This document shows positions 45,364 to 51,377 of a stretch of 64,000 nucleotides of DNA, piece by piece. The stretch comes from Escherichia coli (GTDB lineage Bacteria > Pseudomonadota > Gammaproteobacteria > Enterobacterales > Enterobacteriaceae). Positions within the stretch are counted from its first letter, which is position 1, and every line of letters begins with the position of its first letter. The notes beneath the pieces are model-generated. The model made no database searches. It was not told the DNA's origin and was given only the letters and a program-made list of their open reading frames with translations. The position numbers and the translations under genes are program-made. The stretch is from NCBI RefSeq assembly GCF_003334765.1, contig NZ_QOWT01000006.1. One strand, 5' to 3'.

Positions 45364-45392
45364 AAAAAAACGGCACCAGGTGCCGTTTTTTA
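45364..45392. terminator. Bidirectional rho-independent terminator between convergent tynA and feaB
   Basis: aaaaaaa-cggcacc-ag-gtgccg-tttttt: perfect stem flanked by A- and T-runs. Confidence 0.7.
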
Positions 45393-45409: not shown

Positions 45410-46909
45410 TTAATACCGTACACACACCGACTTAGTTTCACACCAACCGTCCAGCCAGTCGGGGCCAAAATCACGGCCCGTTCCTGACTGCTTCATCCCA
45501 CCAAACGGTAAGTTAGCGTCAATTAAGGTATGGCTGTTTACCCACACCGTCCCTGCCTGTAAGCGATCGCTATATTCCAGAGCCTGGGAGAGATTTTGCG
45601 TCCAGACACTGGCAGTTAAGCCATATTCCGTGTCGTTTGCCAGTTGTAACGCCTCTTCTCCATCCGCTACTCGCACCAGGTTTACCACCGGACCAAACAC
45701 CTCTTCACGAGTTAAGCGCAATTTAGCATCGGGATTTACCACCAGCGTTGGCGCAACATAATACCCCTCTCCGGCTGGTCCATTCGACCCGCGAATCAGC
45801 TCTGCTTGCTGTGCCTGCGCATCGTCGAGGAATGAACACACTTTGTCGCAGTGCGCACGAGAAACCAAAGGGTTAATCTGTGCAACAGGTGACATCCCCG
45901 GTCCCACTTGCAACGATTTTACCGCCTGCTCAAATCCACTAACCAGCGTGTCAAACAACGGCGCTTCAATATAAATTCGCGAACTGGCGGCGCATACTTG
46001 CCCTTGATTCAGGAAGCTTCCGGTCATCAAGCCTTCAATAACCCATTGCGGATCAGCATCTTTTAATACAATTGCCGGGTTTTTACCGCCCAGTTCCAGC
46101 GTTACACGCGTTAAGTGATCAGCAGCAGTTCTGGCAATACCTTTTCCCGTCGCGGTTGAACCGGTAAAACTGATTTTCGCAACATGAGGATGTGACGTCA
46201 GGGCCGCGCCGCATACAGCACCTGACCCGGTGACGACATTAAAAACGCCATCAGGGATACCAGCCTCGCTGGCCAGTTCCGCCACGCGCAACATCGTCAG
46301 TGGCGTGGTTTCCGAAGGCTTAATCACGATTGAACAGCCTGCTGCCAGTGCTGGCATCACCTTCCACATACCAATCATCAACGGAAAGTTCCATGGCACA
46401 ATTCCCGCCACTACGCCAACCGGCTCTTTACGCGTCCAGGCCTGATAACGCGCCCCCTGGGGTAAGGGAATCGACAAGTCCAGCGTTTTACCCGCGATTT
46501 TGGTCGTTAACCCGGCGGTATAACGCATCCAGTTCAGCGTACAGCCCACTTCAAAAGCACGGGAAATGGCAATTGACTTGCCTTGCTCCAGGGTTTCCAG
46601 TTGCGCCAGCTCCTCACTGTGCTGCTCCACCAGATCAGCAAAACGTAGCAGAATACGTTCACGCTCTGCGGGTAATCGCCCGGCCCAGCGACGCGAGACA
46701 AAGGCCCGCCAGGCAGACATGACTGCGTTATCTACATCCGCTTCGTTGGCATCAGCAGTAGACGCAATTTCTTGCCCGGTGGCCGGATCAAAGATCGCCA
46801 ACCGTTTTTCACTTTGTGCGGGGCCAGGACGACCATCAATATAAAGACCGTGTTGACGATCGAGAAACTGTTGGACCTGGCTTAATACTGCTACATGCGG
46901 CTCTGTCAT
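45410..46909 (-). CDS. feaB: Phenylacetaldehyde dehydrogenase (499 aa)
   Basis: ORF 45410..46912 (-); ATG at 46907-46909 gives [29 protein letters not shown]…; ALDH family. Confidence 0.95.
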
Positions 46910-46980
46910 CACTTTTCCTTATTATTTACCCAGTGTGATTTCAGTGTACGCAGCGACAAGAAAAGTCACTTTTTTCGCTG

Positions 46981-47144: not shown

Positions 47145-48050
47145 ATGAACCCCGCAGTGGATAATGAGTTTCAGCAATGGCTTTCCCAAATCAATCAGGT
47201 ATGCGGAAATTTTACCGGACGCCTGCTGACTGAGCGTTACACGGGTGTACTGGACACGCATTTTGCCAAAGGACTAAAGCTGAGTACCGTGACAACCAGC
47301 GGGGTGAATTTATCCCGCACCTGGCAGGAAGTAAAAGGCAGCGACGATGCCTGGTTTTACACCGTTTTTCAGCTTAGTGGTCAGGCAATAATGGAGCAGG
47401 ATGAGCGTCAGGTGCAGATTGGCGCTGGCGATATTACGTTACTCGATGCCTCACGCCCCTGTTCGCTTTACTGGCAGGAGTCTTCTAAACAGATTTCATT
47501 ACTTTTGCCACGCACTCTGCTGGAACAATATTTTCCCCATCAAAAACCTGTCTGCGCAGAAAGACTGGACGCTGACTTACCCATGGTGCAACTCAGTCAT
47601 CGCCTGTTACAGGAGAGCATGAATAATCCGGCACTTTCTGAAACAGAAAGTGAAGCTGCGCTACAGGCGATGGTGTGTCTGCTGCGCCCGGTACTTCATC
47701 AGCGGGAATCTGTTCAACCTCGTCGTGAACGTCAGTTTCAAAAAGTGGTTACGTTGATAGACGATAATATTCGCGAAGAGATATTACGCCCGGAGTGGAT
47801 AGCCGGAGAGACAGGTATGTCAGTACGTAGTTTGTACCGAATGTTTGCCGATAAAGGTTTGGTAGTCGCGCAATATATTCGTAACCGTCGTCTCGATTTT
47901 TGTGCAGATGCGATTCGCCATGCCGCAGATGATGAAAAACTGGCAGGCATCGGCTTTCATTGGGGATTTTCTGACCAGAGTCATTTTTCAACGGTATTTA
48001 AGCAACGCTTTGGGATGACGCCAGGCGAGTATCGACGTAAATTCCGCTAA
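47145..48050 (+). CDS. feaR: AraC-family activator of tynA and feaB (301 aa)
   Basis: ORF 47145..48050 (+), 301 aa, MNPAVDNEFQQWLSQINQVCGNFTGRL…; C-terminal AraC HTH (…GFHWGFSDQSHFSTVFKQRFGMTPGEYR…). Confidence 0.95.
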   Translation: MNPAVDNEFQQWLSQINQVCGNFTGRLLTERYTGVLDTHFAKGLKLSTVTTSGVNLSRTWQEVKGSDDAWFYTVFQLSGQAIMEQDERQVQIGAGDITLLDASRPCSLYWQESSKQISLLLPRTLLEQYFPHQKPVCAERLDADLPMVQLSHRLLQESMNNPALSETESEAALQAMVCLLRPVLHQRESVQPRRERQFQKVVTLIDDNIREEILRPEWIAGETGMSVRSLYRMFADKGLVVAQYIRNRRLDFCADAIRHAADDEKLAGIGFHWGFSDQSHFSTVFKQRFGMTPGEYRRKFR

Positions 48051-48085
48051 CTAATTGGCGTTGCATGTACTGCAACGCCAATTAG
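48051..48085. other. Perfect 15-bp inverted repeat immediately after the feaR stop (possible terminator or protein-binding palindrome)
   Basis: ctaattggcgttgca-tgtac-tgcaacgccaattag; not followed by a clear U-tract. Confidence 0.4.
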
Positions 48086-48221
48086 TTAAAACAGATATTT
48101 GACTATGCATTTTTCAGGGCAAAAGGCAATTTGACAGGAGTTTTTGAATATTCACCTTGTTTCAGGAAAATAGATCAATCGCCTTCTCCTGTAGCGTTAT
48201 CCCGATATTGCGGTTTTGCTA

Positions 48222-48548
48222 TTAAAATTTTCGCACCCATTTACCGTTTATCCCTTGTACATATTCCCCCGGTTTGGCCCGAGCTACGAGCTTTTGCCCG
48301 GCGAGTTTCGCGATATCATCTACCGACACATTATTTTGCTTTGCCAGTTGTTGGTAACTCGCTTTACGTTCGGCATTAATGTCGGCTACTAATTTCTCTG
48401 TTTCAGCATCCGTTTTCAGCGCAACCAGATAACCGTAAAATGTTTCACCTACCCGCCCCTGAGTTCTGGCTTCATCCAGAGTCAATGCCATTACATTGCT
48501 GCTTACCAGCCCAACAAGAAACGCACAAAGAAGTAATGTTTTCTTCAT
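48222..48548 (-). CDS. ydbL: Periplasmic DUF1318 protein YdbL (108 aa)
   Basis: ORF 48222..48629 (-); ATG at 48546-48548 gives MKKTLLLCAFLVGLVSSNVMA|LTLDEARTQG… (signal peptide); the upstream 27 codons of the track ORF overlap ynbE and are not used. Confidence 0.9.
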   Translation of the reverse strand: MKKTLLLCAFLVGLVSSNVMALTLDEARTQGRVGETFYGYLVALKTDAETEKLVADINAERKASYQQLAKQNNVSVDDIAKLAGQKLVARAKPGEYVQGINGKWVRKF

Positions 48549-48555
48549 CATCACC

Positions 48556-48741
48556 TCAGAAAAGATCGCTACGAGTTTCAAGCAGCTCTTCGACATCTTT
48601 GTCTGCCTTGATGATGATCTCATGCTCAATTTTAACGTTCATATTGATAGTGATCGGTTCCTTAGGTGCAGCGACTTCAATGCGAGGCGTACAGCCAACC
48701 AGCATAAAAGATGACGTCAACGCAGCCAGTAAAATTTTCAT
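48556..48741 (-). CDS. ynbE: Lipoprotein YnbE (61 aa)
   Basis: ORF 48556..48741 (-), MKILLAALTSSFMLVGC|TPRIEV… (lipobox LVGC); overlaps the ydbH stop by 4 nt. Confidence 0.92.
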   Translation of the reverse strand: MKILLAALTSSFMLVGCTPRIEVAAPKEPITINMNVKIEHEIIIKADKDVEELLETRSDLF

Positions 48742-51377
48742 TGTTTTTCCTCACACTCTTTTCCTTGCGGACAGTCATTTCCCGGCAGACGTGCGTTCTG
48801 CTCCAGCCATGCCTGGAGATTATCGCCAAAGCGTAAACTGCGCCACAGCGTAAAAATATTCTCTTCATGATGGTAATTAAGGTTTACCGTACCGCTTTTA
48901 CCATCAACGCGACTGGTACCTGTAATGTTGGCCTGCATGGTTAATAAACCGAGATTATCTAAATTAATTTTTGTCGATGAACGGCTAATTTCCATATAGC
49001 GCAACCAGTTAATTGCTGAACCCGCAGTCATATTGTCTTTTACCACCGCATCCGCAGTGTCTTTATCCAGTCGCAATGTCATCGGCCCGCTATTCGCCAG
49101 CCAGCCATCTTTCACAATCCATTTTTCATTGTTCAGCCATAACGGCAGTGCACCACTAAATGCCCCGGACATGGCGAATTGTTTCGGATTGACGGCGCTA
49201 ACCAGTTCGCTGGATGAGAGATTATTCAGCCGCAACAGCGCCGGGTCATGTTGCGGCATACGTAATTGTTTCATCAGTACGTTACCGCCTAACACATCGA
49301 CGCTAACATCAGTCAACAGCAAGGGTTCTTCTTCAGTCCACGGATAACGCCCTTGCAAATCAGCCGTAATATTTTTCGCTGTCACCAGATTAATCACTTC
49401 GGCAATTCGCAACGTAACGGGGCCGCGAGTCCCCAGATGCCAGGCTCCATCGGCAAAACGGAAAGGCAGGACAAAATCGACACCGTTAACCTGATTATCT
49501 GGCATCCAGGCACTACCGCCTTTCAACACGCCGTGTCCTCCCGCGCGGAATCCTTGTTCAGGCGCAGCAGAAAATGCAACCTGAGCATACAGTTCACCAT
49601 CGCGTAAGTTCATCTTCCAGTCGGGTGGCACCAGCGGCTGGAATACGGTCAGTGATTGTTTAGGCCACCAGGCGTTACCGCGCAGACGAATACCGTCCCA
49701 GCGACCATTTACCCGAACCGGGCCAATCTCACCAGCATGTAAATCGCCTTTAAAGAGGAAATAGGTAGGATCGCGCCCATCGACGCTAAATTTTAAGGTT
49801 GATGGCGGTAACACACTGCCGCCAGTGAACAGCGTTTGCCCGGCGTCCAGTGACAGCGCGCCGCTAAAGGAGGGATGCTGTGCGTCACGTACCCAGACGA
49901 TGGGCTTGTCGAGAATTAATCGCGGCTTTTCTACCGTCATCGTACCGTATTGTAACTGGTCGAAACCGGTGGAGAGATCGGTCAGCGTAATCGTGCTGTC
50001 ATGCCACTCACCTTTTCCTGCGACATCCCAGGTGGCATTCATCGGTGTAAAACTCCCTTTTCCCCAGTAGCGCCACTGCCAGCGGCCAGCGTCAGGGAGA
50101 AAATCATTCGCCAGCCCATCCATATGCAGCACGAAATCGCCCAGTTCATTTTCATGCGCCTGCAAGATGGCCTGCAAACGTCCGTCAACACCACGTTGGG
50201 TGACTTTTACACCCGCTAAAGGCCAGCGGATTTCATCGATGTCCAGCGAATCGATGACTCTTCCCTTTGAACGAAGTAACGCGCCTGGCTCAAAGGTCAG
50301 CGTTGGGTCAGACAGACTTCCACTTAGCTGCGCAGGTAAACGGGCATATAAAATGAGGTCCGCCTGTTTCGCTTCACCGGTCAGCTGCAGAGGCAGCTGA
50401 CTGTTATCCATGCTTAATTTTCCTGGGCCAAAATTAAGCACCGCGTTGCCCTTACCCGCTTGCCCCTGGGTCAGCACACTCAGTCGTCCGCTGACCAGAG
50501 CGTTCTCAAGCCCTGCCTGCCAGTTGTCGACTTTGACACCCAGTCGGCCACTCAAAGGAAAACCTGCATACGGCCAGCTCCAGCGACCATCGCTTACGGT
50601 CAATTGTTGACGAGTAATTTGCCACGGCAAATCGAGCAACGGATCGCCGTTATCCCGTGCCAGCACGATCAATTGCCCGCTATTTTCCTGCCAGTCCAGC
50701 TCGGCATCCACCAGTGACGGTTCCTGCGGCAAGTTTAACGTCGCAGTAGCATGCCCACTTACAGGAAGTCCATCCGGCACGAGCGGCATAGCAAATTCCC
50801 CCACCAGTTTTACCGGCGGCTGATTTTCAAACGCGACGACATCCAGTTCGCTGACTGTAAGTTGTTGCCCTTTCAGCTGGCCTTGAAATTTAACTTTTTC
50901 GCCCTGATAACGCAGTTGCTGGATATCAGAGGTTAATGCGAGAGAGAGTTTTCCCTGCCATTCCTGCCAGGGAGAAAAAATCAGTTTATCGATATTGATC
51001 CAGGTGTTAGGCAGCATGGCCTGCCACTGCGCGAGTGTTTTTGGAGCGGCTGGCGATTGCTCCGTCTGCGGCAATTTCGCCAGACAAGCAGAATCAAGTT
51101 CTACCGTGCCGACGTTCAATAACCAGCGGCTGGGATGTGAAAGGCTGGCGTTGGTGATATGCGCAAGCTGACAATCTCCCACCAGATAACGGAGATCGGG
51201 AATGATTAAACCTTTACGCGTAATGCGTGGGCTTTCATCTAATGCAATACGTGTCCCGAGCGGTAGCCAGATGCCCGCCAGCGTGGGAACCCACAGCCCG
51301 AGCGTCATCAGCAGCGTCAACGGCACAAGAATAATCAGTAATAACAGCGCGAGAACGGCTTTATATTTACCCAGCAT
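48738..51377 (-). CDS. ydbH: AsmA-like / DUF748 inner-membrane-anchored periplasm-spanning protein YdbH (879 aa)
   Basis: ORF 48738..51377 (-), 879 aa, MLGKYKAVLALLLLIILVPLTLLMTLGLWV… (N-terminal TM anchor). Confidence 0.94.
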   Translation of the reverse strand: MLGKYKAVLALLLLIILVPLTLLMTLGLWVPTLAGIWLPLGTRIALDESPRITRKGLIIPDLRYLVGDCQLAHITNASLSHPSRWLLNVGTVELDSACLAKLPQTEQSPAAPKTLAQWQAMLPNTWINIDKLIFSPWQEWQGKLSLALTSDIQQLRYQGEKVKFQGQLKGQQLTVSELDVVAFENQPPVKLVGEFAMPLVPDGLPVSGHATATLNLPQEPSLVDAELDWQENSGQLIVLARDNGDPLLDLPWQITRQQLTVSDGRWSWPYAGFPLSGRLGVKVDNWQAGLENALVSGRLSVLTQGQAGKGNAVLNFGPGKLSMDNSQLPLQLTGEAKQADLILYARLPAQLSGSLSDPTLTFEPGALLRSKGRVIDSLDIDEIRWPLAGVKVTQRGVDGRLQAILQAHENELGDFVLHMDGLANDFLPDAGRWQWRYWGKGSFTPMNATWDVAGKGEWHDSTITLTDLSTGFDQLQYGTMTVEKPRLILDKPIVWVRDAQHPSFSGALSLDAGQTLFTGGSVLPPSTLKFSVDGRDPTYFLFKGDLHAGEIGPVRVNGRWDGIRLRGNAWWPKQSLTVFQPLVPPDWKMNLRDGELYAQVAFSAAPEQGFRAGGHGVLKGGSAWMPDNQVNGVDFVLPFRFADGAWHLGTRGPVTLRIAEVINLVTAKNITADLQGRYPWTEEEPLLLTDVSVDVLGGNVLMKQLRMPQHDPALLRLNNLSSSELVSAVNPKQFAMSGAFSGALPLWLNNEKWIVKDGWLANSGPMTLRLDKDTADAVVKDNMTAGSAINWLRYMEISRSSTKINLDNLGLLTMQANITGTSRVDGKSGTVNLNYHHEENIFTLWRSLRFGDNLQAWLEQNARLPGNDCPQGKECEEKQ

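Follow-up and report, generated by a model that had tools for sequence, protein, structure and literature searches.

The window, a 64-kb stretch of Escherichia coli DNA, includes a junction at which two transcription units converge: feaR on the plus strand and the ydbH-ynbE-ydbL operon on the minus strand. The 171-bp spacer between their stop codons contains a long palindrome, and over the palindrome region the locus is 100% identical to many E. coli strains (Table 1). An earlier note described this element as a perfect 15-bp palindrome abutting the feaR stop codon. Its position is exact, the 15-5-15 core ctaattggcgttgca-tgtac-tgcaacgccaattag occupying 48051-48085 and adjoining the TAA at 48048-48050 with its first base; the length given for the arms fell short. 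The inverted repeat extends 3 bp per side beyond the core, to 41 bp (48048-48088), with 18-bp arms that are 100% complementary around a 5-nt loop, and the feaR stop codon is itself part of the stem.

Table 1. Features of the feaR/ydbL junction and its surroundings, in window coordinates
Feature	Position	Strand	Remarks
feaB	45410-46912	-	
feaR	47145..48050	+	AraC-type activator; transcript runs into the hairpin
ydbL	48222..48548	-	Last gene of ydbH-ynbE-ydbL; 133-nt 3' UTR before the hairpin
ynbE	48556-48741	-	
ydbH	48738-51377	-	
Left arm, TAACTAATTGGCGTTGCA	48048..48065		Begins with the feaR stop codon (3 bases)
Loop, TGTAC	48066..48070		Invariant across the haplotypes seen; IS1 junction at its 3' edge in one strain
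Right arm, TGCAACGCCAATTAGTTA	48071..48088		
Hypervariable stem pair	48057 (left member), 48079 (right member)		G:C, C:G, A:T or C·C across E. coli
Remainder of the 171-bp E. coli-specific spacer	48089..48221		Holds a second, imperfect inverted repeat
Bidirectional intrinsic terminator, feaB/tynA junction, AAAAAACGGCACCAGGTGCCGTTTTTT	45365-45391	both	d-scores +19 and +27
Rho-region peak (MG1655 1446501)	47927	- (ydbL direction)	Antisense to feaR, 120 nt past the hairpin
C-rich, G-poor stretch, feaR-sense RNA	48170..48310	+	C/G up to 2.2; candidate Rho loading region
C-rich, G-poor stretch, ydbL-sense RNA	47720..47880	-	C/G up to 2.25, antisense to feaR; candidate Rho loading region
Deletion junction, ST131 (L002)	29707 joined to 47799		~881 complete genomes
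Deletion junction, A:T lineage (L024)	30090 joined to 47840		GATAAA microhomology; ~129 complete genomes

RNA folding, which had been proposed as a check, predicts a stable hairpin on both strands, at -27.7 kcal/mol on the plus strand (z -5.8) and -33.8 kcal/mol on the minus strand (z -5.4), and 0 of 200 shuffles folded as well. The stem, which has a 9-bp G+C-rich core (GGCGUUGCA/UGCAACGCC), is the longest among the perfect hairpins of the window. In 30 Markov-simulated sequences of 64 kb the longest perfect stem measured 8-12 bp, and the earlier judgement that the palindrome is too long and too perfect to be a product of chance is thereby borne out. The search for the same palindrome elsewhere, also suggested at the time, found no second copy, either in the window with up to 3 mismatches allowed (0 expected) or elsewhere in E. 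coli genomes; each genome has a single site, the two matches per genome being the two strands of that site. An Rfam scan of 47800-48400 in E-value mode returned only sub-threshold, generic hairpin matches to miRNA models, the best of them scoring 23 bits where the gathering score is 97.

Of the features of a canonical intrinsic terminator, the palindrome possesses the G+C-rich stem-loop and lacks the U-tract, which is absent 3' of the stem on both strands (tails AAACAGAUAUUU on the plus strand and GCGGAAUUUACG on the minus strand). A consensus terminator scan did not flag the site. The d-scores, which are of the d'Aubenton-Carafa 1990 type, with energies from ViennaRNA, lie between -19 and -53 over three stem registers and both strands. 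The window offers a standard for comparison in the second-longest of its perfect hairpins, the bidirectional terminator downstream of the feaB stop codon, at a junction with tynA that we place from K-12 gene order and not from an open reading frame call in the window. The U-tract scores of this terminator are 4.6-5.1, compared with 0.06-1.8 for the palindrome. The palindrome shares with overlapping bidirectional terminators the convergent position and the symmetry, and not the A-tract and U-tract flanks, its core being bordered by mixed A/U sequence (UAACUAAUU / AAUUAGUUA).

A further 10-bp perfect hairpin lies between A and T tracts at 22165-22190 (AAAAGGGAAATGCATCTTTCCCTTTT); within its loop region, AAGATGCATTT, which we take to be the NsrR half-site consensus, is matched exactly. 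A candidate NsrR half-site beside the palindrome, ATGCATTT at 48104, was rejected as being at chance level (22 matches versus 28.5 expected).

For the ydbL direction, published data bear on how transcription ends. Adams et al. 2021 (PMC7815308, Supplementary file 2) report a Rho termination region on the plus strand of MG1655, with a peak at 1446501, a Rho score of 4.03 and a p value of 1.3e-5. In the absence of bicyclomycin, coverage there drops from 54 to 14; under bicyclomycin, the corresponding values are 87 and 91 (PMC7815308). Polymerase arriving from ydbL therefore passes the hairpin and is then stopped by Rho. The Rho score is computed over 800-nt windows, so that both the position of the peak and the apparently complete read-through under Rho inhibition are coarse. 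The Rho-insensitivity of intrinsic terminators is thus not seen at the palindrome, as judged in the ydbL direction only. The earlier note had held that this is no classic intrinsic terminator, and the missing U-tract, the negative d-scores and the bicyclomycin-sensitive termination on the ydbL strand all agree with that view.

For the feaR direction, the same Rho table lists nothing, and the curated Term-seq lists of that study (PMC7815308), which cover three growth conditions, contain no 3' end at MG1655 14462xx-14465xx, likely because of low expression. Nor is the locus listed in the TERMITe and SMRT-Cappable-seq supplements, and a search of the literature on feaR together with ydbL or bicyclomycin found nothing relevant. 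On both strands, the RNA downstream of the hairpin is richer in C than in G, with C/G peaks 80-230 nt (plus strand) and 150-320 nt (minus strand) beyond it, relative to a window-wide 95th percentile of 1.8.

These data also bear on the idea of a weak bidirectional terminator of non-canonical type, or of a pause site, at which the hairpin would pause or release some polymerases and position head-on collisions. The symmetric placement between convergent genes suits this idea, and so does the base composition: on both strands the G+C-rich 9-bp core is followed by the same A/U-rich nonamer, AAUUAGUUA, in which 8 of 9 bases are A or U and which would form a weak RNA-DNA hybrid. Moreover, in the model proposed by Wang, Ju and Liu (bioRxiv 10.1101/2022.10.23.513370), the hairpins of bidirectional terminators trap elongation complexes whichever side they come from, and termination is completed by collisions. 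However, the U-tract scores are far below those of the neighbouring terminator and every d-score is negative, and the coverage on the ydbL strand, which with bicyclomycin does not fall across the hairpin, leaves intrinsic termination at most a minor part. In addition, with the stop codon in the stem, a terminating ribosome would keep the left arm open while the polymerase is near. We consider this explanation distinctly unlikely.

The earlier note also raised the possibility of a protein-binding site. At the DNA level, the palindrome might be an operator bound by a dimeric protein or, alternatively, a remnant of recombination or of a mobile element. The perfect dyad symmetry is compatible with the former; an IS1 junction at the border of the loop and the right arm in one strain, together with several rearrangement end-points nearby, is compatible with the latter. 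Nevertheless, arms of 18 bp far exceed typical operator half-sites, no promoter-like site is present within 200 bp, and the three base pairs that occur at the symmetric position 48057/48079 (G:C, C:G and A:T) would alter the specificity in both half-sites. Transcription-factor operators are recognized by a conserved half-site at a promoter, and the palindrome provides neither: it is located at the 3' ends of converging genes and is missing from related genera, and the notion of a protein-binding site finds no support. As for a remnant, the palindrome is single-copy, has no terminal repeats or target duplications and no genuine match in phages or plasmids, and the end-points of the known deletions are 70-250 bp away from it rather than at it. 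Overall, we regard a DNA-level site of either kind as very improbable. Two resemblances to known sites were dismissed by inspection, namely a sigma-54 promoter (TGGC...TTGCA) in the left arm, which has the wrong spacing, and a PdhR-like box (AATTGG...CCAATT), with a spacing of 19 nt rather than 3.

A search of genome contigs with FeaR gave only five loci, and none of these contains the palindrome: three have abutting stops and one has an unrelated spacer. In two species of Pseudocitrobacter and in Pluralibacter, the convergent feaR and ydbL stop codons abut, with neither spacer nor hairpin (TGATTA / TGATCA in L005, L006 and L007, around 2400-2410), and another Escherichia species (L004) has an unrelated 75-bp spacer at the feaR/ydbL junction. 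The divergence between E. coli and its relatives begins exactly at the stop codon, and none of the 5,426 complete E. coli genomes has the spacer of the L004 type. Because the spacer is found only in E. coli, the palindrome is a novelty of the E. coli lineage. The L004 genome is titled E. coli strain SCPM-O-B-8794 and is the representative of a separate GTDB species; its DNA identity with E. coli is 94% in feaR and only 86% in ydbL-ydbH, and probably either the genome is a mislabelled non-coli Escherichia or the locus is mosaic.

A mobile or phage origin of the spacer was rejected, since phage and plasmid collections matched only mislabelled chromosomes; its ends show no terminal inverted repeats or target duplications. 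Two small open reading frames that cross the hairpin, one of 19 codons on the minus strand and one of 6 codons on the plus strand, were discarded for want of a ribosome-binding site. The second inverted repeat of the spacer, at ~48115-48195 with its centre at ~48155 (CAGGG..AAGGC..TTGA / TCAA..GCCTT..CTCCTG), also folds on both strands.

The hairpin is present in about 4,200 of the 5,426 complete E. coli genomes, and the ydbL-proximal part of the spacer in 4,719 of the same 5,426. Haplotypes were counted as exact 65-mer matches in this set. The perfect K-12 type accounts for 1,401 genomes, and a type with GCA changed to GTG in the left arm, beside the loop, for 1,321. In the ST131/B2 type (881 genomes), the pair 48057:48079 has changed from G:C to C:G and the loop-closing pair is broken; in a further 411 genomes, including BL21/B, ATCC 8739, strain C and O104:H4, the left-arm G has become C alone, leaving a C·C mismatch. 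The fifth type, first seen in metagenome contigs, has A:T at this pair (129 genomes). All five main haplotypes stay folded, at -21 to -33 kcal/mol; the C·C mismatch costs 4-6.6 kcal/mol, and the loop-closing pair is broken in ~1,010 genomes. Across six distinct haplotypes, 96% of the stem cells are paired.

At the hypervariable pair 48057:48079, three Watson-Crick types and the C·C mismatch are found, and the changes are transversions mirrored in both arms, with no intermediate between C:G and A:T among the haplotypes. The covariation score is 0.104, versus 0.057 in shuffles, and 15 of 500 shuffles attain the observed score; the covariation comes from a single stem pair. The pattern at this pair is the one feature of the palindrome that is even mildly unusual. 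In the feaR-sense RNA, each of the three transitions observed leaves a G·U wobble; this is suggestive only, given that chance yields the same outcome in about 1 case out of 8. When K-12 is compared with ST131, 3 of the 41 hairpin positions differ (7.3%), as do 8 of the 133 positions in the rest of the spacer (6.0%). With a substitution rate close to that of the spacer and with pairing kept, the sequence therefore drifts freely under retained pairing. Phylogroup membership could not serve to root the haplotype network, since A strains and B1 strains alike include the C·C type.

These haplotypes also speak to RNase III, which might cleave the 18-bp helix, or a sense/antisense duplex, and thereby destabilise the messages rather than protect them. 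A long, perfectly paired helix on both strands, in a region of convergent transcription across the palindrome, is the kind of target that this explanation calls for. Set against this are the common haplotypes with internal mismatches or wobbles, which appear to be without consequence, and we give the RNase III explanation very little credence.

Two independent deletions of ~18 kb have each taken out tynA and feaB, along with the greater part of the paa cluster and the 5' two-thirds of feaR. Both spare a feaR stub of 210-250 bp together with the hairpin, and altogether they affect ~1,010 genomes. Other events have struck the palindrome itself. In strain 21319, the left arm was lost through a 15-bp deletion (L015, 1495-1530); in strain ETEC1739, the junction with an IS1 end falls exactly on the border of the loop and the right arm, and the feaR-to-pdxI side is deleted (L014, 1440-1560). 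In ~519 genomes, unrelated DNA with its own weak terminator-like hairpin replaces everything to the left of ~48158. The end-point of this replacement (e.g. strain PAR, L003) lies near the centre of the second inverted repeat. The C·C mismatch, the loss of an arm, the IS1 junction, the ~519 replacements and the relatives that lack the spacer together imply that the palindrome is dispensable; in the single isolates ETEC1739 and 21319, it is evidently both fragile and dispensable.

Such tolerance is what would be expected of a neutral quasipalindrome, one that arose with the E. coli spacer and whose arms were made, or are kept, perfect by intramolecular template switching during replication. Several other observations point the same way. 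The whole spacer is lineage-specific, with abutting stops or an unrelated 75-bp spacer in the relatives; the substitution rate of the hairpin equals that of the flanking spacer; and mirrored transversions, through G:C, C:G and A:T, are expected if a single mutation is copied from one arm to the other. In MG1655, perfect inverted repeats are over-represented, ~150-fold for arms of at least 13 bp, and are conserved (Lavi et al. 2018, PMC5941160), and the same authors attribute this excess to template switching. On the other hand, large clades still carry uncorrected imperfections (411 genomes with C·C, ~1,010 with the broken loop-closing pair and 1,321 with GTG), the transitions have all kept G·U on the feaR-sense RNA, and the hairpin has outlived two independent deletions that end only 210-250 bp away. 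Furthermore, template switching accounts for the perfection of the arms without excluding a function. We view a purely neutral origin as the leading alternative explanation, possible if rather unlikely.

The reading that we favour, and to which we would assign an even chance of being correct, is that the palindrome is a 3'-end stem-loop shared by the feaR and ydbH-ynbE-ydbL transcripts, both terminated by Rho, where it would block exonucleases. We prefer this reading because the features of the palindrome match those of a class described by Dar and Sorek 2018 (PMC6061677). In that study, Rho-dependent transcripts were found to have precise steady-state 3' ends just past stable stem-loops; these stem-loops have neither U-rich tails nor upstream A-tracts, and the sequence downstream is mildly enriched in C over G. 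PNPase and RNase II trim the diffuse tails generated by Rho back to the stem (PMC6061677). The palindrome likewise is a stable stem-loop with no U-tail or A-tract and with C over G downstream, and for the ydbL direction, Rho termination beyond it is documented by the published data at coarse resolution.

The proposed sequence of events is as follows. A very stable RNA stem-loop, transcribable from both strands, would mark the boundary of the converging units. The hairpin alone would not terminate transcription, and RNA polymerase would read through it; immediately past this point, where the RNA is untranslated, rich in C and antisense to the opposing gene, Rho would load and terminate transcription diffusely. 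PNPase and RNase II, working 3' to 5', would trim the tail to the base of the hairpin, and their arrest there would define and stabilise the mature 3' end. The hairpin may also restrict convergent read-through by pausing polymerase, an insulating effect like the one put forward for hairpins at convergent junctions (bioRxiv 10.1101/2022.10.23.513370). Thanks to the perfect symmetry of the repeat, a single element can work for both transcripts. On the feaR side, the stop codon is inside the stem and the terminating ribosome must therefore melt the left arm, and the hairpin of the feaR mRNA could thus form only after ribosome release. We infer that steady-state 3' ends lie at the base of the hairpin, where exonucleases are blocked, and that the feaR transcripts, too, are terminated by Rho.

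In favour of a shared exonuclease-blocking stem-loop, the hairpin is stable on both strands, exceeds chance expectation, has no U-tract and keeps its pairing in all haplotypes. Its survival in the ~1,010 genomes that have lost most of feaR fits a role for the remaining transcript, that of the ydbL direction. What weighs against this reading is that no curated 3' end maps near the hairpin, that the C·C mismatch and outright losses are tolerated, that covariation is found at one pair, and that template switching alone could explain the perfection. The earlier note had proposed a stability element or a Rho-dependent termination signal. The Rho region 120 nt beyond the hairpin, the C-over-G RNA on both strands and the match to the class of Dar and Sorek are all in keeping with the first part of that proposal and with a link to Rho; the second part needs amending, as the hairpin would be the structure to which Rho-terminated RNA is trimmed, rather than the Rho signal itself. 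Several points go beyond what was noted then: the palindrome would serve two converging units, is specific to E. coli, persists in ~1,000 feaR-deleted genomes and could owe the maintenance of its perfection to template switching.

Most likely, then, the palindrome is an ordinary member of an already described class of elements. The practical value of this assignment is small, as it probably accounts for how the poorly expressed feaR and ydbH-ynbE-ydbL units end. For annotators it carries a caution against taking every conspicuous palindrome for an intrinsic terminator or an operator. Together with the feaB/tynA terminator one gene away, the palindrome makes a clean pair for comparing hairpins with and without a U-tract at convergent junctions, and the five haplotypes (e.g. 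the mismatched BL21 type against the perfect K-12 type) are natural mutants for studying both the function of the hairpin and the correction of mismatches by template switching.

A bolder interpretation, which we put forward only tentatively and consider doubtful, is that the locus offers a population-scale record of concerted evolution within a palindrome. One pair would have been rewritten at least 2 times by mirrored transversions, with the mismatched intermediate still present in 8% of genomes, and the element would have persisted after two deletions of feaR, either as a selected insulator for the ydbH-ynbE-ydbL lipid-transport operon or as an outcome of template switching in the wild. If true, this would make the locus a tractable chromosomal example of quasipalindrome template switching.

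The palindrome can be set beside four kinds of known elements. Overlapping bidirectional intrinsic terminators have reportedly been found at convergent gene pairs by Ju, Li and Liu in 2019. With these, the palindrome has in common a single symmetric hairpin that is located between convergent genes and transcribed from both sides; it differs in lacking the A-tract and U-tract flanks that the feaB/tynA terminator has, and in being followed by Rho-dependent termination on one strand. Like REP/BIME elements, it is an extragenic palindrome at the 3' ends of genes that would be able to stabilise upstream mRNA against exonucleases; unlike them, it is single-copy in each genome, belongs to no family and carries no repeat annotation in the MG1655 RefSeq record. 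With the quasipalindrome template-switch hotspots studied in the Lovett laboratory (e.g. PMC7202029) and the conserved perfect inverted repeats of Lavi et al. 2018 (PMC5941160), it shares a short, perfect, non-coding repeat, mirrored variants and a mismatched intermediate, whereas several of its imperfections remain uncorrected in large clades. The closest parallel is with the class of Dar and Sorek, with which the palindrome shares a stem-loop without U-tail or A-tract, C in excess of G downstream, bicyclomycin-sensitive termination beyond the stem on the ydbL strand, and a position at the end of a transcription unit that runs into an opposing gene. Within this class, the palindrome would stand out by a stem that is unusually long and perfect (18 bp), overlaps a stop codon and is common to two transcription units.
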